Shown here piece by piece: positions 32,343 to 61,056 of a stretch of 64,000 nucleotides of DNA. The stretch is from Candidatus Oxydemutatoraceae bacterium (GTDB lineage Bacteria; Pseudomonadota; Gammaproteobacteria; Poriferisulfidales; Oxydemutatoraceae): positions 32,001 to 96,000 of the forward strand of contig CBDCOZ010000002.1 of the NCBI GenBank assembly GCA_965220085.1, read 5' to 3'. The stretch's first letter is position 1, and each line of letters begins with the position of its first letter. Below the pieces are notes generated by a model, which made no database searches, had not been told where the DNA came from, and worked only from the letters and a program-made list of their open reading frames with translations. Made by a program: the position numbers and the translations under genes.

Positions 32343-33503
32343 TCACAGGCGCAACGGCATCACGACATAATCGTCGTTCCCGCCACCGTCGCCAATGATT
32401 CGGATGGCATCCAGCGCGTCCTGCATTTGCAGAATGACCTTCTCCGTATCCACCGCTTTCATCACCTCGACCAGAAACCGCAGATTGAAGCCGGACATGA
32501 GGTCATCCCCCTCAAAGGCCACTTCCTGCTCGACTTCCGCCGTATCGCCGCCGATAGATTCGGTCTGCAAGACGACCTTTTCACCGGAAAAGGAAAGTTT
32601 CACGCTGTGGTCGTTGCGCGCCGAATCGGTCACCAGAATGGCAGCCGAGCGCATCAGCGAACTGAGCATATCTTGCCGGTCAATCGTTGCCTTGCGGGTG
32701 GATTTCTGCGGGATAACACGCTGATAATCCGGAAACTTGCCGCTCAAGACTTTCGCGATAATAAAGGTATTTTCGTCAAAGATAACCTTGACTTGCCGCT
32801 TGCCAATCTGAATGACGACCGGCGCATCGTCGCTGCCCCCCAACCCTTTTTCAATCTCCAGGACAAGTTGCCGCGGCAGGATGGCATCGACTTTCTCCTT
32901 GCTTGTCTGCTCCACTTTCATGATGCTACGGGCGAGGCGGTGGCCATCGGTTGCAACCGCCGACAACTGGTCGCCATCGTGCTCCAGTAACAAGCCATTC
33001 AGGTAGTGCCTCGGATCGTGCTCACCCATAGAAAACGACACCTTGGCGAACATGTTCGCGAGGTCATCCTGACGCAGTGTGAGTTCGCATTGGGCCGGTT
33101 CTTCTTCCGCATCGGGAAAGCCCTCAACAGGCAAACTTTGCAACTTGTAGCGGCTTTTGTCACCCGGAAAGGTCACATCCACCTGGCACGCCATCGCCTC
33201 TTGCTCCTCATCCTCTTTTTCGAAGAAGTTAAGCGATATTTCTGGCTTTTCTGCCGAATTTCGCGCTATTTCGTACACTTTTTGGATGGGAAACAGCACT
33301 TCGGCCGGCTCCTCAACCTGAATGTTCGTGCAACGGCAACTCAACACATCGATAAAGGAACCGAAGCTGACGAAGCGACACGCCCCGTCTTCGGGAATGA
33401 TCTTGGCCATGACCTTGTGGGACTCGATGGCCTTGCCGTCGATAATCTTGCGCAAGCGCGAAAGGATGTCGACGAAGTCGGAAGTGGGTAATGTTATTCG
33501 CAT
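32343..33503 (-). CDS. dnaN: DNA polymerase III beta sliding clamp
   Basis: R.YLNG, VATDGHRL, GKFPDYQRVIP, VVMPLRL; start taken at MRITL. Confidence 0.95.
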   Translation of the reverse strand: MRITLPTSDFVDILSRLRKIIDGKAIESHKVMAKIIPEDGACRFVSFGSFIDVLSCRCTNIQVEEPAEVLFPIQKVYEIARNSAEKPEISLNFFEKEDEEQEAMACQVDVTFPGDKSRYKLQSLPVEGFPDAEEEPAQCELTLRQDDLANMFAKVSFSMGEHDPRHYLNGLLLEHDGDQLSAVATDGHRLARSIMKVEQTSKEKVDAILPRQLVLEIEKGLGGSDDAPVVIQIGKRQVKVIFDENTFIIAKVLSGKFPDYQRVIPQKSTRKATIDRQDMLSSLMRSAAILVTDSARNDHSVKLSFSGEKVVLQTESIGGDTAEVEQEVAFEGDDLMSGFNLRFLVEVMKAVDTEKVILQMQDALDAIRIIGDGGGNDDYVVMPLRL

Positions 33504-33668
33504 AGTATTAATATATAGGTTATCAAGCTTATTGTTGTTATAACATGAAAAGTCTGTGGATAAAACCCCTGCGGCTTTTTCCACTGCGTTCTCTCACTCT
33601 CATCCCGTTGTGGATACCAGCTTGGATGAATTGTGAGTTGTGAGTTATGCCCGGTTTGCTCATATGTT
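33504..33668. promoter_or_regulatory. Candidate oriC (dnaA-dnaN intergenic region)
   Basis: Perfect DnaA box TGTGGATAA at 33555-33563, near-match TGTGGATAC at 33609, AT-rich stretch at 33504-33545. Confidence 0.6.
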
Positions 33669-34991
33669 TTATGCAGTTAGTTCTTGTCGCAGGCGCATAA
33701 AAGCATTGTCAAGTTTCGGATCTTGTTTGCGAGAGATGGCCACCTTTCTGCACGCATAGAGCACCGTCGTATGGTCACGGCCGCCGAACGCTTCGCCGAT
33801 TGTCGGCAAGCTCGCCTGCGTGACATCTTTTGCAAGAGCCATGGCCATCTGCCGCGGGAAGACGATGATCTTCTTGCGGCTCTTTGACAACAAGTCGGCG
33901 ACGCGAAGATTATAAAACTGTGCGATGATCTTCTGCACATCTTCAATCGTGACCGCGCGGCGGTGCGACGCGAAGGCATCTCGCAGCGAGCTTTTAACCA
34001 ACGCCAGCGTTACCGGAGAAGCCAACGCCGTCGCGCTCGCGTACACCCGCCGCACCGCGCCTTCCAACTCGCGGATATTGGAATCAATGTTCTTCGCGAT
34101 GAAGAACGCGATATCCTGATCCATTTCCGAACCCAGGAGGGTGGCTTTGTTTTGCACGATGGCCACGCGCGTTTCAAGGTCCGGCGCTTCTATCGATTGC
34201 GTGAGTCCGCAACCGAACCGTGATCTCAACCGCTCTTGCAAACCGACGAGATCTTTCGGGTAACGATCACACGTCATAACGACTTGCTTTTTGCTTTGCA
34301 TCAGCGTGTTGAAGGTGTGAAAAAACTCTTCCTGACTTTGCTCCTTGCCGCTGAAGAACTGAACATCGTCAATGAGCAACACATCGATAGAGCGATAGAA
34401 CTTCTTGAATTTGTCCATCTTATTTTCCCGCAGCGCGCGCACCATATCGTGCACGAAGCGTTCCGAACTCATGTACAAAACGCGCGCGTTAGGATCCTTG
34501 CGCACGATTTCATTTCCGATCGCGTGCATCAAATGTGTCTTGCCAAGACCGACATCGCTGTAGAGAAAAAACGGATTCGCAACCGTGCCGGGATTGTTTG
34601 AAACTTGTTGCGCGGCAGCCTTTGCAATCTGGTTTGACTTGCCCTCGACAAAGGAATCAAGAGTCTGGTGCTGGTTCAAAAAAGAAGCCAATTTCTGCCG
34701 GTGCGACGCCTCTTCAAGGTGTTGATTATCCAGGCTTTTATCCACCTCTTTAAGCCCCTGAACAGAGACGCTCATACGCAGTTTAACCGACTTGTTTGTG
34801 GACAGTCTCAGCGTTTCTTGAATGGTTGTAAAACAGTTTTCTTTTACCCACGTCGCGATAGCTCCGTTCGGCGCGACGAGGTTCAAACTGTCATCGGCTT
34901 CGTATACTTCGAGCGGATGAACCCACATGTTCATGTCCTCTTCTTTGAGTTGACTTTCAAGTGTCTTCACACACTCTTGCCACAAATTCAT
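33669..34991 (-). CDS. dnaA: Chromosomal replication initiator DnaA
   Basis: NPFFLY..VGLGKTH, LLIDDVQF, QEEFFHTFN, NIRELEGA, FGGRDHTTV; ATG 34991 with AAGGAG RBS. Confidence 0.98.
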   Translation of the reverse strand: MNLWQECVKTLESQLKEEDMNMWVHPLEVYEADDSLNLVAPNGAIATWVKENCFTTIQETLRLSTNKSVKLRMSVSVQGLKEVDKSLDNQHLEEASHRQKLASFLNQHQTLDSFVEGKSNQIAKAAAQQVSNNPGTVANPFFLYSDVGLGKTHLMHAIGNEIVRKDPNARVLYMSSERFVHDMVRALRENKMDKFKKFYRSIDVLLIDDVQFFSGKEQSQEEFFHTFNTLMQSKKQVVMTCDRYPKDLVGLQERLRSRFGCGLTQSIEAPDLETRVAIVQNKATLLGSEMDQDIAFFIAKNIDSNIRELEGAVRRVYASATALASPVTLALVKSSLRDAFASHRRAVTIEDVQKIIAQFYNLRVADLLSKSRKKIIVFPRQMAMALAKDVTQASLPTIGEAFGGRDHTTVLYACRKVAISRKQDPKLDNAFMRLRQELTA

Positions 34992-35069
34992 AATAAAAAT
35001 TCTCCTTAAAAGTTTGTTACTTTGTGCTGTTGTCAGGATGACAACACATGCATAGATTAAACGTAAAAT

Positions 35070-35150
35070 GAACTTTGTCCACCCCCCTATAAAAGAGTTT
35101 GATACGCCAAGAGAAAATATTTTTTCTGTGCACAAACTGTGGAAAAAACA
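35070..35150. promoter_or_regulatory. DnaA-box-like cluster upstream of dnaA
   Basis: TTGTCCACC, TGTGCACAA, TGTGGAAAA. Confidence 0.5.
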
Positions 35151-35567
35151 CGTTTGCATGACCGTTTATCTTGAAAAATATACCGTTCGTCAGAAAAAAT
35201 CTTCTCACCTGATTGATTTAAATTTCATTACTGTATCCGAGAGAATTGCATCCCCCGGTTAAATGTGTTGTTAAATTGAATGTCATCACCGCACCCCAGA
35301 GTTGCGCCACCGTCTGTAAATAATCAGAGCGCCCGCCGGTTAAAAAGTTACCGGCCCCGCAGACTCAGGCAAGCGCGCCTGTGCCGTGATAAAAAACTTG
35401 ATTTTTGCCGAGGCATCTGCTTTAATCATCTGTCCGCTCCCGTTGGAGGGATGCCCAAAGCGTGGGGGCGGGAATGTGAGCGAGGCGCAACAAGGCCATA
35501 TTATAACAGGGACCCGGACTGTGGCATTTGCCAAAAACGGAGCCAGCCATTACAATCAGCGGCACTT

Positions 35568-35702
35568 ATGAAAAGAACATTTCAACCAAGCAACATCAAG
35601 AGGAAGCGCACCCACGGCTTTCGCGCGCGGATGCGCACGAAAGCGGGTCGCGCTGTTCTCAACGCTCGCCGTCGCAAAGGCAGAGCTCGGTTAATCCCCT
35701 GA
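35568..35702 (+). CDS. rpmH: 50S ribosomal protein L34
   Basis: [22 protein letters not shown]. Confidence 0.98.
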
Positions 35703-35707
35703 TTGTT

Positions 35708-36073
35708 TTGTCGTCAAGACACAGCGAGAAGTTTGGTCGTGAACATCGCCTGCGCAAAGCGACCGAGTACAAAACCATTTTGGACAAGCGGTCAACGAGC
35801 GACAAAACCATCGCCCGCCGATTCGTTTTTTTTGCGCGCGACAACACGCACGACACCGCCCGGCTTGGCATCGCGGTGGGAACGCGAGCGCTGAAAAGAG
35901 CCGTTCACCGCAACCGGATAAAGAGGATGGTGCGCGAAAGTTTCCGCAAAAACAGATACCGCCTGCCGGCGCGCGATTATGTCGTCATCTGCCGAGGCGG
36001 TCAGCCGCCGCGACTTCCCGGTTGTCGCGAAGCGCTGAAGTCATTCTGGGACACACAAGCGGGAGGCGCGTGA
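35708..36073 (+). CDS. rnpA: Ribonuclease P protein component
   Basis: RLGIAV...KRAVHRNRIKR..RESFR; start uncertain (TTG). Confidence 0.93.
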   Translation: MSSRHSEKFGREHRLRKATEYKTILDKRSTSDKTIARRFVFFARDNTHDTARLGIAVGTRALKRAVHRNRIKRMVRESFRKNRYRLPARDYVVICRGGQPPRLPGCREALKSFWDTQAGGA

Positions 36074-37767
36074 TGGGTAATCCGCGCCTGCTTCTGTATC
36101 TGTCGCTTGGGCTTGTCCTGTTCTTGCTTTGGACACGCTGGCAGGAGTGGAACGCTCCGCAACGTGCCGAAGAGCCGCCGCCCGTCTCGCAAGCGACGCA
36201 ACCGCCGGCGCAAGCGGAGGGAGGCGCTGTCGTCGATACGGTGCGCGATGACATGCCGAGCGCGGTCGCCGCGCGCGACGGCGAAGCGAGCGCCGCGCCG
36301 CAGCAATCGCCGCGACAATCGCAAAGCGATACGCTGGTCGTGACCACCGACTTGATGCGCGTGGAGATAGATACGCGCGGCGGAGATGTGACGAGCCTTG
36401 AGTTGTTGCAAGTGCCGATAGATTCCGAGCACAAAGACATTCCCTATCGCTTGCTTGCCGCTCGCGACCCGCGCTACATCATTCAATCGGGATTGTTGCA
36501 CGATCAAACCGGCGATGTGTCGCCGGAGGAGTTGAGCGCGCTGGCGCCGTCGCACCATGCGAACTATGAGATAGACGTATCCGAAGTGACGTTGCGCGAT
36601 GGCGCCGACACCGTGACCGCAACATTGCATTGGCGCAACGACACCGGCATCACGGTCAAAAAAGAATACGCGTTTCATCGCGGTCAATACAGTTTTGACG
36701 TGACCCACACGGTGCGCAACCGTTCGGCGACGACCTGGATCGGGCGGCAGTATCGACAGGTGCGCCGCGCCCCGCCGACCGATGAGTCGGCGCTCATCTA
36801 TACGTTTACCGGCGGCGCGTATTACGACGGCAAATACAACAAGGTCTCGTTTGAAGAGATGGACGAAGCCGCGTTGTCGCAGACGGTTCGCGGCGGCTGG
36901 GTGGCGATGTTGCAACATTACTTCTTCAGCGCGTTGCTGGCGGACACAAAAACCGACAGCGACATCTACACCCGTTCGGTGCAAGGCGACCACAGCCGGG
37001 AGTACATCATCGGCCTGCGTTCGCAAGCCTTGCGCATCGGCCCGGGCGATACGATGCAATTTGGCGGGCGCATTTTTTCCGGGCCAAAGATTCAAAACCA
37101 ACTCAGCGACATCGCGCCCGGGCTGGAGTTGGTAACCGACTACGGCATCTTCTCGGTGATTTCAAAACCGCTGTTCTGGTTGCTCGACAAATTCTTTTTG
37201 CTATCCGGCAACTGGGCGGTTGCGATCATCCTGCTGACGCTTTTGATTAAGCTCGTCTTCTACAAATTATCCGAGACAAGTTACAAATCCATGGCGCGCA
37301 TGCGCAAGTTGCAACCGAGCATCCTCGCCATGCGCGACCGCTACAAAGACGACCGTCAACAGATGCAAAAAGCGATGATGGAGTTTTACCGCAAAGAGAA
37401 GATCAACCCGCTCGGCGGCTGCCTGCCGATTCTGGTGCAGATACCGGTGTTCATCGCCCTGTACTGGGTGTTGCTGGAAAGCGTGGAGTTGCGTCAGGCG
37501 CCGTTTGTGCTGTGGATACAAGACCTCTCGGTGCGCGATCCGTATTTCGTTCTGCCCTTGCTGATGGGCGGCACGATGCTGATTCAGACCAAGTTGAACC
37601 CGACGCCGCCGGATCCGATACAGGCGCGCGTGATGATGTTGTTGCCGATCATATTCACCGCCTTCTTTGCGTTCTTCCCGGCCGGGCTGGTGCTGTACTG
37701 GCTCGTCAACAACGTTCTTTCCATTGCGCAACAGTGGGTCATCAACCGGCGGATCGCACAAGCATAG
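36073..37767 (+). CDS. yidC: Membrane protein insertase YidC
   Basis: QHYF, DYG, KINPLGGCLP.LVQIPVF.ALY, FPAGLVLYW.VNN. Confidence 0.97.
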   Translation: MGNPRLLLYLSLGLVLFLLWTRWQEWNAPQRAEEPPPVSQATQPPAQAEGGAVVDTVRDDMPSAVAARDGEASAAPQQSPRQSQSDTLVVTTDLMRVEIDTRGGDVTSLELLQVPIDSEHKDIPYRLLAARDPRYIIQSGLLHDQTGDVSPEELSALAPSHHANYEIDVSEVTLRDGADTVTATLHWRNDTGITVKKEYAFHRGQYSFDVTHTVRNRSATTWIGRQYRQVRRAPPTDESALIYTFTGGAYYDGKYNKVSFEEMDEAALSQTVRGGWVAMLQHYFFSALLADTKTDSDIYTRSVQGDHSREYIIGLRSQALRIGPGDTMQFGGRIFSGPKIQNQLSDIAPGLELVTDYGIFSVISKPLFWLLDKFFLLSGNWAVAIILLTLLIKLVFYKLSETSYKSMARMRKLQPSILAMRDRYKDDRQQMQKAMMEFYRKEKINPLGGCLPILVQIPVFIALYWVLLESVELRQAPFVLWIQDLSVRDPYFVLPLLMGGTMLIQTKLNPTPPDPIQARVMMLLPIIFTAFFAFFPAGLVLYWLVNNVLSIAQQWVINRRIAQA

Positions 37768-39348
37768 CGCTTGCGTTGCGGGTGTTTTATGATCGCACGG
37801 ACGAAACACGCCACTCGGATTTTGATTGTGCTGTCGGCGCTGACGCCGGCGCTCTCCGCTTGCATGAGCGATTGGCGCAACGCAGCGCTCGCGGGTGTTT
37901 TATGATCGTGCGAATGAAACACGCCGCTCGGGTTTTGATTGTGCTGTCGGCGCTGACGCCGGCGCTCTCCGCTTGCATGAGCGATTGGCGCAACGCAGCG
38001 CTCGCGAGAGTTTTATGATCGTGCGGATGAAACACGCCGCTCGGATTTTGATTGTGCTGTCGGCGCTGCCGCCGGCGCTCTCCGGCTGCATGAACGATTG
38101 GCGCAACACAGCGCTCGCAGGTGTTTTATGATCGTGCGAATGAAACACGCCGCTCGGATTTTGATTGTGCTGTCGGCGCTGCCGCCGGCGCTCTCCGCTT
38201 GCATGAGCGATTGGCGCAACGCAGCGCTCGCGAGAGTTTTATGATTGTGCGGATGAAACACACCGCTCGGATTTTGATTGTGCTATTGGCGCTGACACCG
38301 GCGCTCTCCGGTTGCATGAGCGATTGGCGCAACGCAGCGCTCGCGAGAGTTTTATGATCGTGCGGATGAAACACGCCACTCGGATTTTGATTGTGCTGTC
38401 GGCGCTGACGCCGGCGCTCTCCGCTTGCATGAGCGATTGGCGCAACACAGCGCTCGCGGGTGTTTTATAATCGTGCGAATGAAACACGCCGCTCGGATTT
38501 TGATTGTGCTGTCGGCGCTGATGCCGGCGCTCTCCGCTTGCATGAGCGATTGGCGCAACGCAGCGCTCGCGAGAGTTTTATGATCGTGCGGATGAAACAC
38601 GCCGCTCGGATTTTGATTGTGCTGTCGGCGCTGCCGCCGGCGCTCTCCGGCTGCATGAACGATTGGCGCAACACAGCGCTCGCAGGTGTTTTATGATCGC
38701 GCGAATGAAACACGCCACGCGGATTTTGATTGTGCTGTCGGCGCTGATGCCGGCGCTCTCCGCTTGCATGAGCGATTGGCGCAACGCAGCGCTCGCGAGA
38801 GTTTTATGATTGTGCGGATGAAACACACCGCTCGGATTTTGATTGTGCTATTGGCGCTGACACCGGCGCTCTCCGGTTGCATGAGCGATTGGCGCAACGC
38901 AGCGCTCGCGAGAGTTTTATGATCGTGCGGATGAAACACGCCACGCGGATTTTGATTGTGCTGTCGGCGCTGATGCCGGCGCTCTCCGCTTGCATGAGCG
39001 ATTGGCGCCAATAGCGCTCGCAGGTGTTTTATAATCGTGCGGATGAAACACGCCACTCGGATTTTGATTGTGCTATTGGCGCTGACACCGGCGCTCTCCG
39101 CTTGCATGAGCGATTGGCGCAACGCAGCGCTCGCAGGTGTTTTATGATCGTGCGGATGAAACATGCCGCTCGGATTTTGATTGTGCTGTCGGCGCTGATG
39201 CCGGCGCTCTCCGCTTGCATGAGCGACTGGCGCAACGCAGCGCTCGCGGGTGTTTTATGATCGCACGGACGAAACACGCCACTCGGATTTTGATTGTGCT
39301 GGCGGCGCTGACGCCGGCGCTCTCCGCTTGCATGAGCGATTGGCGCAT
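37768..39348 (+). repeat. 113-bp tandem array, 14 copies, each a lipoprotein-signal minigene
   Basis: Unit starts at 37789, 37902, 38015 ... 39144, 39257 (one unit is 112 bp); the last copy is the 5' end of the DUF3750 gene. Confidence 0.95.
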
Positions 39349-39814
39349 GGCATCGCGCGAGTCAATCGGCATCGCACCGCTTGCCGCCGACGAACCGGAG
39401 GCGGTGGTGCAAGTGTATGCGGCGGCGACGTTCGGATGGCGCGGCTGGTTTGCCGATCACACATGGGTCGCGACCAAGTCGGCGCAAGCCGAGCAGTACA
39501 CGGTCTATGAAGTGCTCGGCTGGCGGATCTATCGCGGCGACCCGATCGTGCGGATTGCGCAGGACTTGCCGGATCGCAAATGGTTCGGCTCCGAACCGAG
39601 AATCCTGATCGATCTGCGCGGCGCGGTGGCGGAGGCGGTCGCGGAAAAAGTGGACGAAGCCGCGCGCAGCTATCCGTATCACAACAAGTACCGCATGTGG
39701 CCGGGCCCAAACAGCAACACCTTCACCGCCTGGATCGCACACCAAGTCCCGGAGTTAGGGCTGGACTTGCCGCCGCGCGCCATCGGCAAGTCCTACCCGT
39801 TGGAGGCACACTAA
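39257..39814 (+). CDS. DUF3750 family lipoprotein
   Basis: Lipobox LSAC; EAVVQVYAA..GWRG.F..HTW; Y..WPGPNSNTF; AIGK. Confidence 0.85.
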   Translation: MIARTKHATRILIVLAALTPALSACMSDWRMASRESIGIAPLAADEPEAVVQVYAAATFGWRGWFADHTWVATKSAQAEQYTVYEVLGWRIYRGDPIVRIAQDLPDRKWFGSEPRILIDLRGAVAEAVAEKVDEAARSYPYHNKYRMWPGPNSNTFTAWIAHQVPELGLDLPPRAIGKSYPLEAH

Positions 39815-39832
39815 CTTCCGCCGGATAACTCC

Positions 39833-41200
39833 GTGAGCCGCCTGCCAGACAACGCGACGATTGCGGCGGTTGCCACGCCCGCGGGCTACGGCGGTGTCGG
39901 CATCGTGCGCATCAGCGGCGCGCGCGCGCGCACAATCGGTTTGCAACTGACCGCGCGACGCGCGCTGCAAGACCGCCGCGCGACCTTCTGCCGCTTCATC
40001 GCCGCCGACGGCGAGCCGATAGACGAAGGCATCGCCCTGCTGTTTGCGCGACCCCGCAGTTACACCGGCGAAGATGTGTTTGAAGCGCACGCCCACGGCG
40101 GCCCGGTCGTGTTAGAAATGCTGCTCGCCCGCGTCCTTGAATTGGGCGCGCGAATGGCCGAACCCGGCGAGTTCAGCCGGCGCGCGTTTCTCAACGGCAA
40201 GCGCGACCTCGCCCAACTGTCGGCGGTTGCCGACTTGATTAACAGCGCCAGCCAACAGGCCGCGCGCAGCGCCCGCCGTGTCGTGCAAGGCGAGTTCTCC
40301 GCGCAGGTGCGGGTCGTGTGCGAGGAGCTCAAGTCGTTGCGGGCGCTGATCGAGGCGACGCTGGATTTTCCCGACGAGGAAGACGTAACGGAAGACAACA
40401 CCCTGCAACAAACCTTGTGCGCCCGCGTCAAGGCGCTGGCACAGGCGGTGGCCGAGTTAGAACGGCGGGCGACGGGCGGGATGCGCTTGCACGAGGGCCT
40501 GGAGTTGGTCATCGCCGGCCAACCCAATGTCGGCAAGTCCAGTTTGCTCAACTGCCTCGCGCAGCGCGAGACGGCCATCGTCTGCGATGCGCCGGGGACG
40601 ACACGCGATGTCGTGCGGTGCGATATTTTGATCGACGGCATGCCGATGCGCGTTCTGGACACCGCAGGGCTTCGCCCGGGCGCCGATGCGGCGGAGCGCG
40701 AAGGCATTCGCCGGGCGCATCAAGCGATGGAGAGCGCCGATGTGGTGGTCGTCTTGGCGGATGCGACGGCGGGGCTTGGCGCGGCGGGGCGCGAGTTGCT
40801 GGATAAGTTGGCCGCCGCCGGCGCCAATGTGATCACCGCGTTGAATAAGAGCGACCTGCTCAAAGCGCCGCCGCCGGAGTCGGACACATTATATGTGTCT
40901 GCCAAAACCGGCGCCGGCATCGCTGCGCTGTGTGCGGCGATCAAAGAGAAAGCGGGGGTTGTCGATCTCGGCGAGGATACGCTGGTCGTGCAACGGCGGT
41001 ATCTGGATGCGTTGAGTCATGCGCGCAAAAACTTGGCGGCGCTCGCGCACAATCTTACGACAAGCGATGCCGATGTAGCGCTTGACATGCTCGCTCAAGA
41101 CTTGCGCGACACGCATCAAAGTTTGTCCGCGCTGCTCGGCGAGTACGCCACCGAGGACATGCTGGGCGATATCTTCTCGCGGTTTTGCATCGGCAAATAA
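39833..41200 (+). CDS. mnmE: tRNA modification GTPase MnmE
   Basis: IAAVATP.G.GG, SYTGED, GQPNVGKSS, GTTRD, DTAG, NKSD, FSRFCIGK. Confidence 0.97.
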   Translation: MSRLPDNATIAAVATPAGYGGVGIVRISGARARTIGLQLTARRALQDRRATFCRFIAADGEPIDEGIALLFARPRSYTGEDVFEAHAHGGPVVLEMLLARVLELGARMAEPGEFSRRAFLNGKRDLAQLSAVADLINSASQQAARSARRVVQGEFSAQVRVVCEELKSLRALIEATLDFPDEEDVTEDNTLQQTLCARVKALAQAVAELERRATGGMRLHEGLELVIAGQPNVGKSSLLNCLAQRETAIVCDAPGTTRDVVRCDILIDGMPMRVLDTAGLRPGADAAEREGIRRAHQAMESADVVVVLADATAGLGAAGRELLDKLAAAGANVITALNKSDLLKAPPPESDTLYVSAKTGAGIAALCAAIKEKAGVVDLGEDTLVVQRRYLDALSHARKNLAALAHNLTTSDADVALDMLAQDLRDTHQSLSALLGEYATEDMLGDIFSRFCIGK

Positions 41201-42340
41201 GTCGTCACGGCGCGGGCCGGCGGATGCGCAGATACGCCGGATGGCGCGGCAAGCCGTTGCGCGTCAAGCCCTGATAGGGGGAGTTGTCAATCTCGGCGAG
41301 GACGCGCTGGTCGTGCAACGGCGGTATCTGGATGCGTTGAGTCATGCGCGCAAAAACTTGGCGGCGCTCGCGCACAATCTTACGACAAGCGATGCCGATG
41401 TAGCGCTTGACATGCTCGCTCAAGACTTGCGCGACACGCATCAAAGTTTGTCCGCGCTGCTCGGCGAGTACGCCACCGAGGACATGTTGGGCGATATCTT
41501 CTCGCGGTTTTGCATCGGCAAATAAGTCGTCACGGCGCGGGCCGGCGGATGCGCAGATACGCCGGATGGCGCGGCAGGCCGTTGCGCGTCAAGCCCTGAT
41601 AGGGGGAGTTGTCAATCTCGGCGAGGACGCGCTGGTCGTGCGGGGGCGGTATTTGGATGCGCTCGGTCATGCGCGCAAAAACTTGGCGGCGCTCGCGCAC
41701 AATCTTACGACAAGCGATGCCGATGTAGCGCTTGACATGCTCGCTCAAGACTTGCGCGACACGCATCAAAGTTTGTCCGCGTTGCTCGGCGAGTACGCCA
41801 CCGAGGACATGTTGGGCGATATCTTCTCGCGGTTTTGCATCGGCAAATAAGTCGTCACGGCGCGGGCCGGCGGATGCGCAGATACGCCTCGCGGTTTTGC
41901 ATCGGCAAGTAAGCCGTCACGGTGCGGGCCGGCGGATGCGCAGATACACTGGATGGCGCGGCAGGCCGTTGCGCGTCAAACCCTGATAGCGGTAAGTAAT
42001 CGTCGCGCCGACCGGCGCTGGTCGTGCGGGGGCGGTATTTGGATGCGCTCGGTCATGCGCGCAAAGACTTGGCAGCGCTCGCGCACAAACTCACGACAAG
42101 CGATGCCGGGTTAGCGCTTGACATGCTCACGCAAGACTTGCGCGACACCCATCAAAGTTTGTCCGCGTTGCTCGGCGAGTACGCCACCGAGGACATGTTG
42201 GGCGATATCTTCTCGCGGTTTTGCATCGGCAAGTAAGCCGTCACGGCGCGGGCCGGCGGATGCGCAGATACACCGGATGGCGCGGCAGGCCGTTGCGCGT
42301 CAAACCCTGATAGCGGTAAGTAATCGTCGCGCCGACCGGC
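40955..42340. repeat. 325-bp tandem duplication of the convergent mnmE/ligase 3'-end junction
   Basis: FCIGK-stop recurs at 41200, 41525, 41850, (partial ~41911) and 42236. The ligase C-terminus (..YLRIRRPAP-stop) recurs on the minus strand. Confidence 0.95.
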
Positions 42341-43140
42341 GGCGGGTCTTTGCGTTGCGCATCCGACAGGCCGCTGCCGATGCGAAAGACGCGCCCTTGC
42401 GGGGTGCGCACCCGCAGCGAGCCGGTCATGCCGGCGTATTTGCCGCGCCCCGGGCGGTGGCCGATAACGGTCGCTTCGGCATCATAAAACGGTTTGTATT
42501 TGAGCAAGTCTCTGCTGCGCCCGCTTTGATGATAGGAGTCTATCCGCCGCAACATCAGCCCTTCGCCGCCGCCGGCAACGGTCTCGTCAAAGAGCGCTTG
42601 CAACGCTTCGCGCGAGGCGACGGGCCGCTGTCGCACGACTTGCCAGAAAGCGTTTTTACTGGCGGCGACAAGCGCGCGCAGCGCCGCCTGCCGCTGCCGA
42701 AATGTTCCGGCGTGTGCGGGCAGGTCAAACACCATGAAACGAATCTCGCGCCAGCCATCGTGCGGTTGCTGTTTGCGCACGACCGAGACGGTCGCCTCAA
42801 ACTGCCCGCGCCCCAACCACAACTCACCGTCCAGCGCTGTGGCGGGAAGGTCGGCGACGAACCAGTGCGGCGCGGCGAACACATTGCCGCTGCGCGAGCG
42901 CAATCGTTGCCCGTCCCACACCGCGCGCACGCCATCGTATTTTTCACTGACCCAATACTCGGCGAGGTCCACCGTGTTGTCGTCGGGGCGATAGGCGTCG
43001 GCGAGCGACACTTCGGGCGCTGCTTTGGTCGCATCCGCCGCGTCCGCAACGGGGTGCGGTATCGCAACGCCGACGGCGAAGATCGCGCAGGCAATCAGGT
43101 TTGTCGTGCGCGTGAAAGTAACTGTAAAAATGTTCATCAT
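42241..43140 (-). CDS. Minimal ATP-dependent DNA ligase (Lig E type) with predicted signal peptide
   Basis: SEKYDGVRA, LDGELW, EGLML, LLKYK, OB-fold GSG, G.PR.P; hydrophobic N-terminus. Confidence 0.9.
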   Translation of the reverse strand: MMNIFTVTFTRTTNLIACAIFAVGVAIPHPVADAADATKAAPEVSLADAYRPDDNTVDLAEYWVSEKYDGVRAVWDGQRLRSRSGNVFAAPHWFVADLPATALDGELWLGRGQFEATVSVVRKQQPHDGWREIRFMVFDLPAHAGTFRQRQAALRALVAASKNAFWQVVRQRPVASREALQALFDETVAGGGEGLMLRRIDSYHQSGRSRDLLKYKPFYDAEATVIGHRPGRGKYAGMTGSLRVRTPQGRVFRIGSGLSDAQRKDPPPVGATITYRYQGLTRNGLPRHPVYLRIRRPAP

Positions 43141-43394
43141 GGCCTTATAAAACACCATTACAAGGCCTGCGCCGCAACCAATATGCCGAAAGAGCCATTT
43201 TTTCCGATAAGCGGTCATGCATCATGCCGAAGCATTGCGGGGTTCCGGCTACAACACGATGCAATAGCAACACCGGCTACGGCATCAACGGTTTCTATGA
43301 AAGCGGGGATGTCTGGCGCAAGCAAAACGGTGCGCCAGATACGTGCGGAAAGTTTGCGGTTGCCATCGGGTTGCGCACTCGTCAGCTTCCAAGG

Positions 43395-45036: not shown

Positions 45037-45067
<31 letters not shown>

Positions 45068-50051: not shown

Positions 50052-51010
50052 TGCCGTACCCCGACATCAGGCCGGAGCATCATCGCGCCGAGGGCGACGG
50101 GCGTATCGTTAGCATCGCGCTGAACGGCGGCGCCGAGGGGGGCGCTGTGGCGCTTGGGCCGGAACTTTTGAACGGCGTTGGAAGGCAGTTTGAAAACTGG
50201 TATGCGACGCCCGCCGCGCCGGTGCGCGCGCATGAGAGCGGCGTGCGCTATGCGGCGAACGCGGACATGGCCTGCGGGTTTTTGCCGCTGCGGCGGGGGC
50301 AGCCGGTGGCCGAGACGACCGCGCGGTTTTATCGGGCGCTGTTTGCGATTCTCAAAGAGTGCGGCGACTTCGCGCCGCTTCGGGTCTGGCATTACCTGCC
50401 GGATTTGAGCGGCGCGGGCGAGCCGACGCCGTATCGGATGTTTTGCCGCGCGCGGGCGGCTGTCATCGGCGCGGTGAGTCCCGGGATGCTGTGCGCGGCG
50501 ACTGTCATCGGCAGCGGCGCGGAGCACGGCCTGCTGTATTTTCTGGGCGGCGAGCGGGGCGGGCGCGTGATTGATAACCCGCGCCAGACCAATCCGAGCG
50601 ATTATCCGGCGCAGTATGGCGACCCGCCGCCGCTGTTTGCGCGCGCCGTGTTGCACCGCAGCGCTGCTGCCTGCCGACTGTATATCTCAGGCACCGCGAG
50701 CATCGTCGGCCATCGCTCGTGCCATGCGGGCGACGCTGTGGCGCAACTGGATGAGGTGGCCGACAACCTGCAGGCGTTGCTGGCGGCTGCGGCTGAGGCG
50801 GAACCCGCGTTTGCCGACAAGACCTTGCGCGACCTGCGCAGCGCCCGCCTCTACCTGAAGCGCCGCGCGGATTATGACGCTGTTGCCCGCGCCTTGCCCG
50901 CCCGCTTCGGTGCGCTGCCTGACCTCAAAATCTTTCGCGGCGAGATCTGCCGCCCCGAGTTGCTGGCGGAGATGGAGGGGATGATTGAGCAGCGGCGGGA
51001 GGGGACGTGA
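50051..51010 (+). CDS. FkbO/Hyg5/XanB2-like chorismatase (pteridine-dependent deoxygenase-like)
   Basis: R.W.Y, Y..FC.AR, NPRQ...YP.QYG..PP.FARA, ISGTASIVGH, ICRPELL.E.EG. Confidence 0.8.
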   Translation: MPYPDIRPEHHRAEGDGRIVSIALNGGAEGGAVALGPELLNGVGRQFENWYATPAAPVRAHESGVRYAANADMACGFLPLRRGQPVAETTARFYRALFAILKECGDFAPLRVWHYLPDLSGAGEPTPYRMFCRARAAVIGAVSPGMLCAATVIGSGAEHGLLYFLGGERGGRVIDNPRQTNPSDYPAQYGDPPPLFARAVLHRSAAACRLYISGTASIVGHRSCHAGDAVAQLDEVADNLQALLAAAAEAEPAFADKTLRDLRSARLYLKRRADYDAVARALPARFGALPDLKIFRGEICRPELLAEMEGMIEQRREGT

Positions 51011-51620
51011 TGCGGTGCGCGGATTATGACGCTGTTACCCGCGCCCTGCCCGCCCGCTTCGGTGCGCTGCCGAATCTTAAAATCTTTCGCGGCGAGATCT
51101 GCCGCCCCGAACTGCTGGCGGAGATGGAGGGGATGATTGAGTGCTGGCGGGAGGGGGCGTGATGCGGTGCGCGGATTATGACGCTGTTGCCCGCGCCTTG
51201 CCCGCCCGCTTCGGTGCGTTGCCGGAGCTTAAAACCTTTCGCGGCGAGATCTGCCGCCCCGAGTTGCTGGCGGAGATGGAGGGGATGATCGAGCAACGGC
51301 GGGATGTGATGCGGTGTGCGGATTATGACGCTGTTCCCCGCGCCTTGCCCGCCTGCTTCGGTGCGTTGCCGGAACTTAAAATCTTTCGCGGCGAGATCTG
51401 CCGCCCCGAACTGCTGGTGGAGATGGAAGGGATGATCGAGCACCGCCGGGAGGGGACGTGATGCGGTGCGCGGATTATGACGCTGTTACCCGCGCCTTGC
51501 CCGCCCGCTTCGGTGCGCTGCCGGAACTTAAAATCTTTCGCGGCGAGATCTGCCGCCCCGAACTGCTGGTGGAGATGGAAGGGATGATCGAGCACCGCCG
51601 GGAGGGGACGTGATGCGGTG
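50866..51620 (+). repeat. ~152-bp tandem array of the chorismatase 3' end (gene copy plus 4)
   Basis: GCGGATTATGACGCTGTT...GAGATGGA.GGGATGAT.GAG...GTGATGCGGT repeated five times. Confidence 0.95.
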
Positions 51621-51706
51621 CGGTGTGCGAGAGATTTGCGATGCCACATGCCATGACCGTTGTCACCGAGTTGGGGTGATGCGGTGCGCCCGACGGGGGG
51701 CTTGCG

Positions 51707-53456: not shown

Positions 53457-54917
53457 TCATTGCTTGTTATCCTTCGGGTATGCCAGCGCCAGACAGCGCT
53501 CGGCAATCACCTTGAGCTTTTTGCTGAGGGGGTTTTTGTTGGCAGGCACGCGGGCGGCGATGATGTTTGTTAGGCCCCGCACCCCGTCTCGCGTGTACCA
53601 CACGGCGATAATAATAAGCGCAAAGCCCAGCGCCGTATCCAGCAACGCGTCTGTCCACGGCCCTTCGTTGAGGGATAGCTGAAGCAGCCAATAACCGCCC
53701 GCAACCACGATGGCGCCGACATAGCCCGCTACGAGCGCGGTGAGCGCGACCCAAGCGCAGATGTTGCCGGTATGTTTTAGTATGCGTTTGGCGTTGCTTC
53801 CTTCGTCGTAGCCGCGGAGGGCTTTTTGGCGTTGTTTTAGCTCGGCTTTGGCAGCCTCTCTGTTGTCGTAAGCCGGAGTGTATTCCGGGTCTATCTTCAG
53901 GGCCTTGCTGTAGTCTTTGATGGCGTCTTGGTATCGTTGTATCCTCGCTTTGCAGGTGCCTCTGATGTTGTAATTCGAGGCATCTTTCGGGTCGCGCTCT
54001 AGGGCTTTGTCAAAGTCTTTGATGGCCGCTCGGTATTGTTTGAGCGCGGTGTTGGCGGTGCCTCTGTTGCTGTATGTTTCGGCATCGTCCGCTCCAAGCT
54101 CTATCGCTTTGTCAAAGTCTTTGACGGCTGCTCGGTATTGTTTTAGCACGGTGTTGACGGCGCCTCTGTTGCTGTACGTCTCGGCATCGTTCGGGTCAAA
54201 CTCTATCGCTTTGTCGAAGTCTTTGATGGCCGCTCGGTATTGTCTTAGACTGATTTTGATGAGGGCTCTGTTGTTGTAAGGCGCGGCATCTTGCAGACAA
54301 AGTTCTGTGGCTTTGTCGAAGTCTTTGATGGCTTCTTGGTATTGTTTTAGCCTGCTTTTGCAGGTGCCTCGGTTGCTGTATGCCGCGGCGTATTCCGGGT
54401 TGATCTCCAGAGCCTTGTCGTAGTCTTGGAGGGCTTCTTGGTATTGCCTTGTCGCGGCTTTGACAATGCCTCTGCAGTTGTACGCCTTGGCGTATTCGGG
54501 GTTAATCTCAATGGCTTTGTCGTAGTCTTGGATGGCTTCTTCGTATTGTTTTAGCGAGGCTTTGGAGGCGCCTCTGTTGATGCAGGCTGTGGCATCCTCC
54601 GGATCAATTTCTATGGCTTTGTCGAAGTCTTTGATGGCCTCTTGGTGCTGTTCCAGATCGGCTTTGGCGAGGCCTCTGTTGTTGTAAACCACGGCATTTT
54701 CCATGTTGATTTCCAGAGCGATGCCGTAGTCTGCGACGGCCTCTTGGTATTTTTTTTGCTCGGTTTTGTCGGTGCCTTTGCTGTTGTACGCCTTGGCGTT
54801 TTTCAGATTGATCTCTATGGCTTGATCGAAGAGTCGGATGGCCTCTTGGTACTGCTCCGCACCGTAGGCTTTGTTTCCCCGTTCAAAAAGAGCGCGGCTT
54901 TTTTCGTCTTTGAACAT
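53457..54917 (-). CDS. TPR-repeat protein with C-terminal 2-TM domain (TPR-1)
   Basis: About 10 34-aa AY.NRG..K..L.QY..AI.D.DKAIE..P repeats and two hydrophobic helices; no signal peptide. Confidence 0.9.
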   Translation of the reverse strand: MFKDEKSRALFERGNKAYGAEQYQEAIRLFDQAIEINLKNAKAYNSKGTDKTEQKKYQEAVADYGIALEINMENAVVYNNRGLAKADLEQHQEAIKDFDKAIEIDPEDATACINRGASKASLKQYEEAIQDYDKAIEINPEYAKAYNCRGIVKAATRQYQEALQDYDKALEINPEYAAAYSNRGTCKSRLKQYQEAIKDFDKATELCLQDAAPYNNRALIKISLRQYRAAIKDFDKAIEFDPNDAETYSNRGAVNTVLKQYRAAVKDFDKAIELGADDAETYSNRGTANTALKQYRAAIKDFDKALERDPKDASNYNIRGTCKARIQRYQDAIKDYSKALKIDPEYTPAYDNREAAKAELKQRQKALRGYDEGSNAKRILKHTGNICAWVALTALVAGYVGAIVVAGGYWLLQLSLNEGPWTDALLDTALGFALIIIAVWYTRDGVRGLTNIIAARVPANKNPLSKKLKVIAERCLALAYPKDNKQ

Positions 54918-55218
54918 TTGAATACCTCCTGAGGTCAGCAGGCGCTACCGGCGGCGGTCGGCGCCGCGCATTTGTAGCGCGATTAATTATGGCGGCTAAT
55001 TGTACCACCAGTAATGTGCCTGTCGGCAAGCGCATATGACGAACGGCAAAAGTGAGGGTTTATAAGCCGTAGCGCCGCAATTTGCTTGGCGGCGAGTGGC
55101 CGCGGTCGCCTGCAAAAGTGAGATGTTATAGCCCGCCGCGATCGCCCAGATTGTCCGAAAAAGCGAGGGTGTCATGACCCGTAGTCGTGCAAGATGCCTG
55201 TTGCCGAGTGCCCAGATT

Positions 55219-55366
55219 ATCCGGACATCGTGATGAAGCGCGGAACCGCTGTGCGCTTTCGTGACTCCCGCCGCTTCGGTATCGTCCTGCGGTTGTCGGG
55301 ATGAAGACTTCGCCGGCGAGCATTTGCAGTGCGCAAGTTTTTATTGTTCCCGCTGCCAGCGCTAGT
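55219..55366 (+). pseudogene. mutM remnant 1
   Basis: Degenerate copy of mutM ~51985-52140 joined to the last ~35 bp of mutM. Confidence 0.8.
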
Positions 55367-55424
55367 GAAGGGAGCGGTATCCGAGGCAGCCCGGCGCTTC
55401 GCTTAGTCGCACAGGCGAACTCTG

Positions 55425-57187
55425 CTACTCGCTATCCGCACCCATGTTGCGGCCAAATGTTTTTGCCCATGTTATTGGACGAGAAAAGTTGCCGGGCGGC
55501 TCTTTGAATGTGCTTTGAATCAAGGCCTCCGGTATGCCACTCGGTGCGAGGAAGGGGTAAAGCGCCGGATCGCTTTTGCCCCCGCTGCGCTCATAGTGTT
55601 TGGTCACAGCCCGCTTGGAGCGGATATCCTCGCGCAGCGCCAGAGCATTAGTTTTGTCTTTGTCCGCCGAATGCGCCCAAAGATAAAACGGCACCAGTAC
55701 CAAAGTAGCCACCACGATAAAGGGAAGGATGCTGTGGGAGCCTTGGTCTTTCATCATTGCAATGCCGACCCATGTTGCCACACCGTAGAGGATTATAGAA
55801 GCAATAATCAAACATATTATAGAGTAGCGATGATACTTGGCTTTCGATTTATGGTCTTCTTCCATCTCTTCCATAATGGCATCGTAATCTGATGTTTCGC
55901 CTATGGCTTTTTCTGCGGCGCTCGGCTTGTCTTGCGACTCTCCCTCAAACTTTTGTTGTTGCTCCTTTAACTGTTCTTCATATTTTTGCGTTATTTTTTT
56001 CTGTTTGTCTTGTGTCAATAATAGTGTTTGTGCTACCGCTCTGTTGTGGATTGCATCAGAGAAACCCGGGTTAAGCTCTAGGGCCTTATCGTAGTCTTGA
56101 ATGGCTTCTCTGTATTGCTCTAACGTAACTTTGGTGGCGCCTCTGTTGTTGTAAGCATCGGCATATTCCGGGTTAAGCTCTATGGCCTTATCGTAGTCTT
56201 GGATGGCCTCTTGGTATTGTTTTAGATCAGCTTTGGCAATGCCTCTGTTGTTGTAAGCCTCGGCATCTTCCGGGTTGAGCTCTATGACCTTATCGTAGTC
56301 TTGGATGGCTTCTCGGTATTGCTTTAGCTTGGTTTCGGCACCTTTCGGGTTAGGCTCTATGGTCATATCGCAGTCTTGGATGGCTTTTTAGTATTGTTTC
56401 AGAAACGCTTTGGCGGCGACTCTGTTGTTGTAAGCATCGGCATATTCCGGGTTGGGCTCTAGGCTAGGGCCTTATCGTAGTCTTGAATGGTTTCTCTGTA
56501 TTGCTCTAACGTAACTTTGGTGGCGCCTCTGTTGTTGTAAGCATCGGCATATTCCGGGTTAAGTTGTATGGCCTTATCGTAGTCCCGGATGGCTTCTTGG
56601 TATTGTTTTAGCCTGGCTTTGGCGACCCCTCTGCTGTTGTAAGCCTCGGCATATTTTGGGTTGAGTTGTATGGCCTTATCGTAGTCTTGGATGGCTTCTT
56701 GGTGTTGTTTTAGCTTAGTTTTGGCAAGGCCCCTGTTGGTGTAAGTTTGGGCATTGTCCGGTTCAATCTCTATGGCTTTGTCGTAGTCTCGGATGGCATC
56801 TTGGTATTGTTCTAGCGCGGCTTTGGCGACCCCTCTGTTGTTGTAAGCATCGGCAAGTTTTGGGTTAATCTCTATGGCTTTGTCGTAGTCTCGGATGGCG
56901 TCTTGGTATTGTTCTAGCGCGGCTTTGGCGTTGCCTCTGTTGTTGTAAAGATAATGGAGCAAGGTGAGTTCCGGCTTAAGCGCCAAAGCTTTGTCGTAGT
57001 CTTGGATGGCTTCTTGGTATTGTTTTAGCGCGGCTTTGGCGTCGCCCCGGACACAGTAAGCATCGACATGTTTCGAGTTGCGCGTTATGACCGCATCAAG
57101 AAGTCCTATGACTTCTTGATACTGTCCTGCCATGTAGGCGTCGCATCCTTCCTTAAAAAGATCTTGGTTTGTTTTGTCGTTGGTCAT
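55425..57187 (-). pseudogene. Disrupted TPR-coiled coil-2TM gene (TPR-2)
   Basis: N-terminal ORF MTNDK.. stops at 56459; a degenerate TPR with an in-frame TAA lies near 56390; the C-terminal ORF is 56366-55425. Confidence 0.8.
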
Positions 57188-59405: not shown

Positions 59406-59912
59406 TTAAGCAGGTGGGGTGGCCTCACCGTTTTTGTTGTAGCCCCAGCAGACGGCCTCGCCGGAAGGTTTCAGGGCGCAGGTGTGGAAGAACCCGGCAC
59501 TGATGGATTGGAAGCGACCGGCGGGCGGTGTGGCCTGACCGAGTCCGTTGTTGCCCCAGCAGACGGCCTTGCCGGAGGGTTTCAGGGCGCAGGTGTGGTC
59601 GCGCCCGGCACTGATGGATTGGAAGCGACCGGCGGGCGGTGTGGCCATACCGGCGACGTTCACGCCCCAGCAGACGGCCTCGCCGGAGGGTTTCAGGGCG
59701 CAGGTGTGGCCGAACCCGGCACTGATGGATTGGAAGCGACCGGCGTCCGCGGCGGCCTGACCGTATTCGTTATCGCCCCAGCAGACGGCCTCGCCGGAGC
59801 GTTTCAGGGCGCAGGTGTGGACGAGCGCGGCACTGATCTGCGCATAAAAGTAATTAGCCCATGCCGGCATCGCCCACAGCAAAAGCAATATTAAAAAAAA
59901 TAATTTTTTCAT
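59406..59912 (-). CDS. Secreted RCC1-like repeat protein, 4 repeats
   Basis: Signal peptide; 37-aa ISAG..HTCAL...G.AVCWG.N..G repeats. Confidence 0.9.
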   Translation of the reverse strand: MKKLFFLILLLLWAMPAWANYFYAQISAALVHTCALKRSGEAVCWGDNEYGQAAADAGRFQSISAGFGHTCALKPSGEAVCWGVNVAGMATPPAGRFQSISAGRDHTCALKPSGKAVCWGNNGLGQATPPAGRFQSISAGFFHTCALKPSGEAVCWGYNKNGEATPPA

Positions 59913-60216
59913 AGTTAAGTCTCCTCAAGAATCGAATGTTTAAACTTGCCAGTTCTGTCCGCTGGCATTATACACAGATTAAAGGTGCGGCTTGTGCAGA
60001 CTGCTCACAAGCCGCACAGCTCGAAGGCGCGCGCTGCTTTGCGTTGTTTGAGCGCGTCGATGTTGGGTCGTGATCATGGGGACGGCGCAGGCGTGACCTC
60101 TGTGGGTGTGCTCGGCGAAGACGAATCTCATCGCAGGGGGCCTTCTAGGAATAGGCGCAAGCGCAGGCGCAAAAGTCAGGATGATTAAAAGCGCTTTTTT
60201 GATATCAATCTCTTCC

Positions 60217-61056
60217 TTAAGAAGGTGGGGTGGCCTGACCGTATTTGTTCCCGCCCCAGCAGTCGGCCTCGCCGGAGGGTTTCAGGGCGCAGGTGTGCCA
60301 CCTGCCGGCACTGATGGATTGGAAGCGACCGGCGGGCGGTGTGGCCTGACCGTGTTTGTTGTAGCCCCAGCAGACGGCCTCGCCGGAGCGTTTCAGGGCG
60401 CAGGTGTGCTGGGCACCGGCACTGATGGATTGGAAGCGACCGGCGGGCGGGCGGGCCTCACCGTATTGGTTGTGGCCCCAGCAGACGGCCTTGCCGGAAG
60501 GTTTGAGGGCGCAGGTGTGGTCGTACCCGGCACTGATGGATTGGAAGCGACCGGCGTGCGGCCTGGCCTTGCCGTTTTCGCGGTTGCCCCAGCAGACGGC
60601 CTCGCCGGAGCGTTTCAGGGCGCAGGTGTGGTCCCTGCCGGCACTGATGGATTGGAAGCGACCGGCGGGCGGTGTGTCCCCACCGTGTAAGGACCAGCCC
60701 CAGCAGACGGCCTCGCCGGAGGGTTTCAGGGCGCAGGTGTAGAGGAGCCCGACACTGATGGATTGGAAGCGACCGGCGGGCGGGCTGGCCTGATCGAGTA
60801 CGTTGTAGCCCCAGCAGACGGCCTCGCCGGAGGGTTTCAGGGCGCAGGTGTGGTCCCAGCCGGCACTGATGGATTGGAAGCGACCGGCGTCCGCGGCGGC
60901 CTCACCGTATTCGTTGTCGCCCCAGCAGACGGCCTCGCCGGAGCGTTTCAGGGCGCAGGTGTGGCCGGACCCGGCACTGATCTGCGCATAAAAGTAATTA
61001 GCCCATGCCGGCATCGCCCCCAGCAAAAGCAACATTAAAAAAAATAATTTTTTCAT
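60217..61056 (-). CDS. Secreted RCC1-like repeat protein, 7 repeats
   Basis: Same signal peptide and upstream DNA as the 4-repeat gene; seven 111-bp units. Confidence 0.92.
   Translation of the reverse strand: MKKLFFLMLLLLGAMPAWANYFYAQISAGSGHTCALKRSGEAVCWGDNEYGEAAADAGRFQSISAGWDHTCALKPSGEAVCWGYNVLDQASPPAGRFQSISVGLLYTCALKPSGEAVCWGWSLHGGDTPPAGRFQSISAGRDHTCALKRSGEAVCWGNRENGKARPHAGRFQSISAGYDHTCALKPSGKAVCWGHNQYGEARPPAGRFQSISAGAQHTCALKRSGEAVCWGYNKHGQATPPAGRFQSISAGRWHTCALKPSGEADCWGGNKYGQATPPS

Follow-up and report, generated by a model that had tools for sequence, protein, structure and literature searches.

The 64,000-nucleotide window analysed here (positions 32,001 to 96,000 of contig CBDCOZ010000002.1, assembly GCA_965220085.1, Candidatus Oxydemutatoraceae bacterium) possesses a tandem array of 113 bp units between yidC and the gene of a DUF3750 protein. 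Positions below are those of the window unless another contig is named. In the reading preferred here, held at a probability of about 0.6, the array is a non-adaptive, locus-specific amplification of the DUF3750 translation start, tolerated because translation remains uninterrupted, and the peptides that its units may encode are by-products.

Tandem Repeats Finder (TRF) reports a period of 113 bp in 13.9 copies with 91% matches, 0% indels and a score of 2608. The 14 start anchors (37789, 37902 ... 39257) are spaced by 113 bp in twelve cases and by 112 bp in one. Each unit consists of a 23-nt leader, an ATG and 30 codons of DUF3750, the latter comprising the signal peptide, the lipobox with Cys25 and the residues MSDWR; the leader carries a Shine-Dalgarno (SD)-like motif (GGGTG, AGGTG or GAGAG) followed by TTTT. 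A period of the form 3n+2, together with ATGA at the start, makes each copy a 38-codon open reading frame (ORF) that stops on the next ATG. The consensus of such a typical unit is MIVRMKHAARILIVLSALTPALSACMSDWRNAALARVL, and its TGA shares two bases with the following ATG. Eleven of the 13 internal junctions have this spacing of -4, the other two measure +2 and +22, and the distance from the yidC stop to the first unit (u1) is +21. The DUF3750 profile matches only the gene of the last unit, u14 (170.2 bits against a gathering cut-off of 25, residues 48-180), the N-terminus of which reads signal peptide, lipobox LSAC (Cys25), MS and then DWRMASRES. A first-pass annotation of this DNA had described 14 units of 113 bp with ATGA overlaps between yidC and DUF3750, the last one running on as the DUF3750 protein, and TRF, the start anchors and the Pfam match (185 aa, E=4.2e-50) bear this out.

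The chain is interrupted at a few units (Table 1). In two units TGA has changed to TAA; the stop is kept, as had been noted, but the same base turns the next ATG into ATA, and this start is lost. The unit at 38467 (u7) could instead start at GTG 38473 (codon 3, +2 from the stop of u6) or at ATG 38479 (codon 5), and the unit at 39031 (u12) at GTG 39037 (codon 3, +22 from the stop of u11) or at the ATG of codon 5. Truncation had been described for the unit at 38919 (u11) only: the frameshift in this 112-bp unit is real, but the units at 38467 and 39031 have lost codon 1 as well.

A higher-order repeat is superimposed on the single units. Units u3 and u8 are identical, as are u5 and u10 (0 differences in both pairs), and a 339-bp query (u2-4 compared with u7-9) matches 565 bp further on at 98%, from which it follows that a five-unit block of 565 bp has been re-duplicated. 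Neither the two TAA units nor the recurrent Gly codons consequently count as independent events; the changes of the lipobox from LSAC to LSGC, through two different Gly codons according to the first-pass annotation, are present, with fewer independent events than they suggest at first sight. The outer units u1 and u14 differ at one of the first 90 positions and share ACG at codon 5, a codon that reads ATG in every internal unit, in agreement with the second Met described for internal units. This likeness of u1 and u14 is the usual picture of array edges that retain the ancestral state. Tandem duplication and amplification by replication slippage or unequal recombination are known from bacteria and have reportedly been studied in Escherichia coli by the Lovett laboratory. 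The present array resembles such bacterial amplifications in its head-to-tail copies, higher-order blocks, ancestral edge units and two whole flanking genes, and departs from them in its 14 copies, its 9% divergence and its location in a 2.5-Mb genome with some 200 arrays.

Identical units point to recent turnover, as would be expected of a variable-number tandem repeat (VNTR) or contingency locus, in which gain or loss of units alters the output of DUF3750 and mnmE, each added reinitiation step or added length lowering or raising downstream expression, and cells differ in copy number. The position of the array within an operon, upstream of two genes, suits such a dial. Divergence of 9% between units, however, slows slippage, and the ribosome-binding site of the last unit itself is unchanged. 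A regulatory role of copy number appears rather improbable.

The copies stand in tandem and the unit derives from the flanking gene, as in a locus-specific tandem duplication array. The unit sequence has no match elsewhere in the genome outside the array. Because the DUF3750 copy stops after DWR and runs into the leader (...NAALARVL), the duplication has cut the conserved DWRTASRES motif, and the C-terminal end of every mini-peptide is encoded by leader sequence. According to the amplification that we favour, a first duplication would have joined codon 30 of DUF3750 to the end of the yidC-DUF3750 spacer by way of short similar motifs. Evidence at the junction is weak: compared with the end of yidC, back to about 37754, the unit tail shows little similarity beyond a shared 11-mer (171 of 2000 shuffles score equally), and the tail of u11 gives 32 of 2000 shuffles that score as well. 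Slippage or unequal recombination would then have enlarged the array, latest by the five-unit block. Ribosomes may begin afresh on every unit, or terminate and reinitiate at every ATGA overlap; in either case the additional 1.47 kb would stay covered by ribosomes, and translation and transcription would still reach DUF3750 and mnmE. With 1.47 kb kept translated in this way, growth to 14 copies could have proceeded without harm, and the 38-residue fragments of a lipoprotein precursor, if they are made, would have no selected role.

Table 1. Features of the yidC-DUF3750-mnmE region in window coordinates, followed by four further chained arrays on contig C3 of the same genome
Feature	Position	Strand	Remarks
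yidC (membrane insertase)	36022..37767	+	ORF; Pfam YidC_periplas E=2.6e-72, 60KD_IMP E=6.6e-63; TTG at 36022 is merely the start of the longest ORF
yidC stop TAG	37765-37767	+	
Native yidC-DUF3750 spacer, 21 nt	37768..37788	+	Final 11 nt GCGGGTGTTTT (SD-like GGGTG) begin the repeat
Tandem array, 113-bp unit x 13.9	37778..39347	+	TRF
u1	37789-37905	+	38 codons, overlaps next unit by ATGA
u2	37902-38018	+	38 codons, overlaps next unit by ATGA
u3	38015-38131	+	38 codons, overlaps next unit by ATGA
u4	38128-38244	+	38 codons, overlaps next unit by ATGA
u5	38241-38357	+	38 codons, overlaps next unit by ATGA
u6	38354-38470	+	38 codons, stop TAA
u7	38467..38583	+	Codon 1 is ATA, start lost; stop TGA 38581-38583
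u8	38580-38696	+	38 codons, chained at -4; identical to u3
u9	38693-38809	+	38 codons, chained at -4
u10	38806-38922	+	38 codons, chained at -4; identical to u5
u11	38919..39014	+	112-bp unit, frameshifted, 31 codons, stop TAG 39012-39014
u12	39031..39147	+	Codon 1 is ATA; stop TGA 39145-39147
u13	39144..39260	+	38 codons; TGA overlaps ATG of the real DUF3750 gene
Higher-order repeat, five-unit 565-bp block	38015..39143	+	u3-u7 recurs as u8-u12
DUF3750 gene (u14 and gene body), 185 aa	39257..39814	+	Pfam PF12570 E=4.2e-50
mnmE (tRNA modification GTPase)	39833..41200	+	Pfam TrmE_N, MnmE_helical, MMR_HSR1
dapF-DUF484 array, 92 bp x 7.1	C3:115710-116363		-4 ATGA chain; locus-specific, operon junction
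DUF4156-SLT_4 array, 80 bp x 6.0	C3:2034810-2035292		-4 ATGA chain; locus-specific, operon junction
alpha/beta hydrolase-dtd array, 176 bp x 5.1	C3:353398-354286		-4 ATGA chain; locus-specific, operon junction
ftsK-lolA array, 134 bp x 7.1	C3:1971851-1972797		-4 ATGA chain; locus-specific, operon junction

Tandem arrays are abundant in this genome of 2.49 Mb (three contigs): 524 non-overlapping arrays make up 7.0% of its bases, and 281 of them have a period of at least 40 bp. Genes were delimited by crude calls of our own (codon-usage-scored ORFs, 1871 genes, 83% coverage). With a period of at least 40 bp and at least 85% matches, 210 arrays are obtained, 45 of which contain the 5' end of a gene. 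All 22 arrays confined to one gene have a period divisible by three, and of the 118 with other periods not one is situated within a gene; frequent tandem duplication, filtered by selection against disrupted genes, would produce this distribution. Of the 210 long-period arrays, 107 belong to dispersed families or protein-domain repeats, and the remaining 103, including the yidC-DUF3750 array, are locus-specific. Among the latter, 30 contain a gene start, with periods of the form 3n, 3n+1 and 3n+2 in 5, 8 and 17 cases (P=0.007 for the last class), compared with 19, 13 and 16 cases in the 48 arrays that contain gene ends only. In the 44 scorable start-holding arrays, the distance from the mini-ORF's stop codon to the start that follows it was measured. 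Chains at -4 occur in seven of them, namely in five of the seven arrays with at least five copies (113 bp x 13.9, 134 bp x 7.1, 92 bp x 7.1, 80 bp x 6.0 and 176 bp x 5.1) and in two of the 37 with fewer. Copy number and -4 chaining are associated in a one-sided Mann-Whitney test (P=0.013, or 0.037 when the yidC-DUF3750 array is left out), and the concentration of chains in high-copy arrays gives a Fisher P of 0.0004 at a cut-off picked after seeing the data. As NTGA junctions are present in 144 of 1119 adjacent same-direction gene pairs, multiplication by 1/3 leads to a chance expectation of 4.3% for a -4 chain, which is exceeded by the 5 of 18 arrays at same-direction gene junctions that are so chained (P=0.0008). 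Pfam alignments support the starts used for the four other high-copy chains. The yidC-DUF3750 array is the most expanded and most diverged chain of the genome, and the only one seen to copy a complete lipoprotein signal peptide.

These distributions bear on a purely neutral scar, i.e. a by-product of a duplication-prone genome in which the chaining is accidental and irrelevant to survival and downstream expression. Tandem repeats in 7% of the genome, substitutions that fit neutrality, a chain broken at u7, u11 and u12 and a last unit that keeps the native 23-nt leader, which would allow DUF3750 to be initiated from its own ribosome-binding site independently of the sequence upstream, are all compatible with it. 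A scar of this kind would, however, leave unaccounted for the bias towards 3n+2 among start-holding arrays (17 of 30) that is missing from arrays with gene ends only (16 of 48), as well as the concentration of -4 chains among the most expanded arrays, and it is accordingly regarded as unlikely. The first-pass annotation had mentioned neutral duplication of a gene start as one of its options. This comes closest to the findings, except that stop-on-start chaining seems to matter for the growth of arrays in this genome rather than for the peptides: in an exploratory sense, start-copying arrays seem to expand mainly when the ORF of each copy ends on the next start.

A very different account had been placed foremost in the first-pass annotation, in which translation of the 12-13 mini-ORFs yields precursors that receive a lipid at Cys25 and are then cut by signal peptidase II into functional lipopeptides of 14 residues. 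As a 13-cistron battery, the array would give about a dozen 38-residue precursors each time ribosomes traverse the yidC transcript; its products (CMSDWRNAALARVL variants) would act at the envelope or on a host, and their variation would represent diversification rather than decay. Each unit does carry an SD-like motif, 11 units possess an ATG, and in all 14 the lipobox still conforms to the rule, Cys25 is retained and the first seven residues include two K/R. Lipoprotein precursors are recognised by K/R in the n-region, a hydrophobic core and a lipobox of the form [LVI..][..][AGS]C with the Cys at position 15-35 (PROSITE PS00013), a rule to which 14 of 14 units conform; lipidation and cleavage are predictions from it. 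The very small lipoproteins entericidin A and B likewise have precursors of some 40 residues that contain a lipobox, and the unit precursor resembles them in both respects. In contrast to these, the unit peptide has neither a match in Pfam nor conservation outside its own genome.

Substitutions among the units do not single out the peptide frame. Substitution types were counted per alignment column, as a lower bound on events that is robust to inheritance between units, and synonymous expectations were derived from the consensus and the observed share of transitions. The count came to 27 types (21 transitions and 6 transversions), besides one 1-bp deletion. Synonymous types number 11 in the peptide frame, where 8.2 would be expected (P=0.17), 7 and 9 in the other sense frames, and 12 in one antisense frame, with an expectation of 8.0. 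Over codon positions 1, 2 and 3 the types divide into 8, 7 and 12 (P=0.46). Omega has a point estimate of 0.63; values of at most 0.3 (P=0.04) and at most 0.2 (P=0.003) are rejected, and neutrality is not. This was the comparison of substitution rates across units and other frames that the first-pass annotation had proposed as a check. Its statement that variation is mostly tolerated at the peptide level finds no statistical support, as 16 of the 27 types alter a residue. The lipobox codons have two substitution types in 12 columns, approximately the array average, and the mature part (columns 76-113) has five non-synonymous and three synonymous types. Lipobox retention is inheritance from the parent gene, whose features are conserved in the units no better than the rest. 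Ordinary protein-level constraint is excluded, and neutral or nearly neutral drift fits, in a test of low power.

Comparison with related loci leads in the same direction. At 18 DUF3750 loci (10 from genomes, 7 from metagenomes and 1 from a relative; 120,903 bases; 43-61% identity), the array is absent from every gene start. All 18 open with a hydrophobic stretch (signal or anchor), after which the conserved DWRTASRES motif comes, once only, and a clear lipobox cysteine is present in 9 of 18 by our own reading of the N-termini. DUF3750 occurs in 2 of the 41 genomes of the relatives' sample, its own genome included. A search of the 52-aa array ORF against 5.8 billion proteins of 28-91 aa gave the 38-aa protein of the window itself as its sole match, and a sequence search of the Protein Data Bank with DUF3750 gave none. 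Neither purifying selection among the units nor conservation elsewhere in these searches, the two marks of a functional small-protein family, was thus found. With no peptide constraint detected, two starts lost, one frameshift, no counterparts and a duplication that cuts through DWRTASRES, about 13 functional lipopeptides are very improbable.

Several points weigh against amplification under uninterrupted translation as well. Translation of the units is predicted from their sequence. ATGA is not the native overlap between the yidC stop and the next start, and luck could account for the chaining: the odds are roughly 1/3 for the period class, multiplied by the probability that A occupies base 4. 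Two or three breaks have already appeared in the chain, which leaves room only for weak or past selection. As to the statistics on the whole genome, they are post hoc, involve small numbers and depend on crude ORF-based gene calls and a rule for picking starts. The synonymous excess (11 against 8.2) leans toward mild constraint at low test power. Finally, at 91% identity the array is more diverged than most arrays of the genome (96-99%), yet 12 of 13 ORFs are open; only 0.53 nonsense changes are expected, however, and 0 are seen.

On the plus strand, a scan of 35600-42500 revealed no promoter-like or terminator-like sites, and the RNA fold of the array is ordinary (z=-0.18); the array is therefore presumably transcribed together with yidC, DUF3750 and mnmE. 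mnmE, which starts 18 nt after the DUF3750 stop, is presumably co-transcribed with DUF3750. Internal promoters, terminators or RNA structure as a function of the array were dismissed on the same results. Some 2-4 kb separate the array from the likely origin of replication, as judged from DnaA boxes and the turn of the GC skew: dnaA (33669-35159, minus strand) stands back to back with rpmH-rnpA-yidC in the region 33500-35600, perfect or near-perfect DnaA boxes are found at 33555, 33609, 34738 and 35138, and it is near dnaA (33500-35600) that the cumulative GC skew begins to rise. Titration of DnaA was rejected as a role of the array, which contains no DnaA box with at most one mismatch (the window has 8, with 8.2 expected), and so was titration of SeqA, as the window has fewer GATC sites than expected (169 against 246).

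Mis-assembly of strain variants, with one or few true copies behind the 14 units, would be conceivable in a metagenome-type assembly, and the short-read contigs (k-mer unitigs of public run X1) do break at the array. They form pieces whose depth scales with sharing: 30-35 for pieces specific to one unit, 67.6 for a piece common to two identical units and 115-144 for those more widely common, with 31.7 and 22.8 in the flanks and 0 differing letters in all pieces listed. These depths fit the assembled multi-copy array, as a read-level check in which X1 may be the assembly's own sample. As the genome is moreover assembled in three contigs with hundreds of other arrays resolved, an artefact is hardly credible.

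Among known systems, the array is closest to the mycobacterial interspersed repetitive units (MIRU, MIRU-VNTR). According to Brown & Wade (2025, PMC12548453), MIRUs carry a mini-ORF at the start codon with a -4 overlap, a layout proposed to leave expression of the gene behind them largely unaffected, and the -4 (NTGA) spacing is given as the commonest and most efficient for translational coupling. The likeness consists in short tandem units at the start of an operon gene with small ORFs chained at -4 (ATGA). The difference is that MIRUs are dispersed over many loci and apparently mobile, whereas the DUF3750 unit copies the gene's own start and forms one array only. A -4 mini-ORF in operon direction is thus present and a dispersed family is absent from the genome, for which reason the array, although it works like a MIRU array, is not one and is a member of the locus-specific tandem duplications. 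With termination-reinitiation coupling at NTGA, as portrayed by the same authors, it shares the -4 spacing and the SD-like motifs upstream; unlike the usual case, up to 13 couplings succeed one another between two genuine genes, and the coupled ORFs are pieces of the gene downstream. To arrays of this kind the present case contributes its extreme number of copies, a signal peptide that has been copied, and phase statistics across the genome. A literature search yielded no account of gene-start tandem arrays, their phase bias or such repeat loads.

Taken as a single locus, the yidC-DUF3750 array is a curiosity; it is the most expanded of about 45 gene-start-duplicating arrays in the genome and the clearest example of the pattern. 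If the pattern held with proper gene calls and in other genomes, start-codon duplications would survive and expand mainly when their stop lands on the next start. The arrays would then represent a natural repeated experiment, with unbroken translation across operon junctions under selection, and a MIRU-type layout could arise from a gene's own sequence without a mobile element. The array also serves as a warning that mini-genes in arrays, however well formed and however perfect their signal peptides, can be by-products, and that peptide genes should not be annotated in such arrays without expression data.

The same-family relative G005 (1.26 of 2.08 Mb) does not offer a clean comparison as a replicate; its start-holding arrays mostly belong to one dispersed 98/107-bp family. 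The 98- and 107-bp units of this MIRU-like family, both of the form 3n+2, usually occur in 2-3 copies per site, many of them at gene starts with mini-ORFs of 33 or 36 codons that end at -4 (e.g. at 88289, 485602, 879968 and 1204932 of the joined 1.26 Mb).

Loss of RecJ as the cause of the repeat load was considered and dropped, since the array load of relatives does not track recJ. recJ (TIGR00644) was not found in the 99%-complete genome, where the sole DHHA1 match lies in an 878-aa frame; mutS, mutL and xseA are present. In genera g2 and g3 of the same family recJ is found in 0 of 4 and 0 of 5 genomes; it is present in g4-g7. In 80-kb samples, two genomes without recJ contain 1 and 0 long-period arrays, and three with recJ contain 4, 8 and 0.

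Further repeats were recorded in the genome and in the window. A second array with a period of 113 bp (2 copies, with a 38-codon mini-ORF) is located at 2039800 of contig C3, and its sequence is unrelated to that of the yidC-DUF3750 array. Downstream of DUF3750, window positions 40954-42271 contain a 325-bp unit in 2.9 copies (97%), overlapped by a 386-bp repeat in 2.0 copies. It copies the 3' ends of mnmE and of the convergent gene for an ATP-dependent DNA ligase (42241-43218, minus strand), so that extra tails of both genes sit between the two intact ones. A run of 27 G occurs at 45037-45063 (TRF period 1 x 27), and a 152-bp unit in 5.0 copies (91%), with a period of the form 3n+2, starts within the 3' end of a gene at 50865-51622. 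The regions 53820-57046, 62504-63736 and 59436-60981 consist of runs of 102-bp (34-codon) and 111-bp (37-codon) repeats, 70-87% alike, which are presumably repeat-protein genes, unlike the junction arrays.

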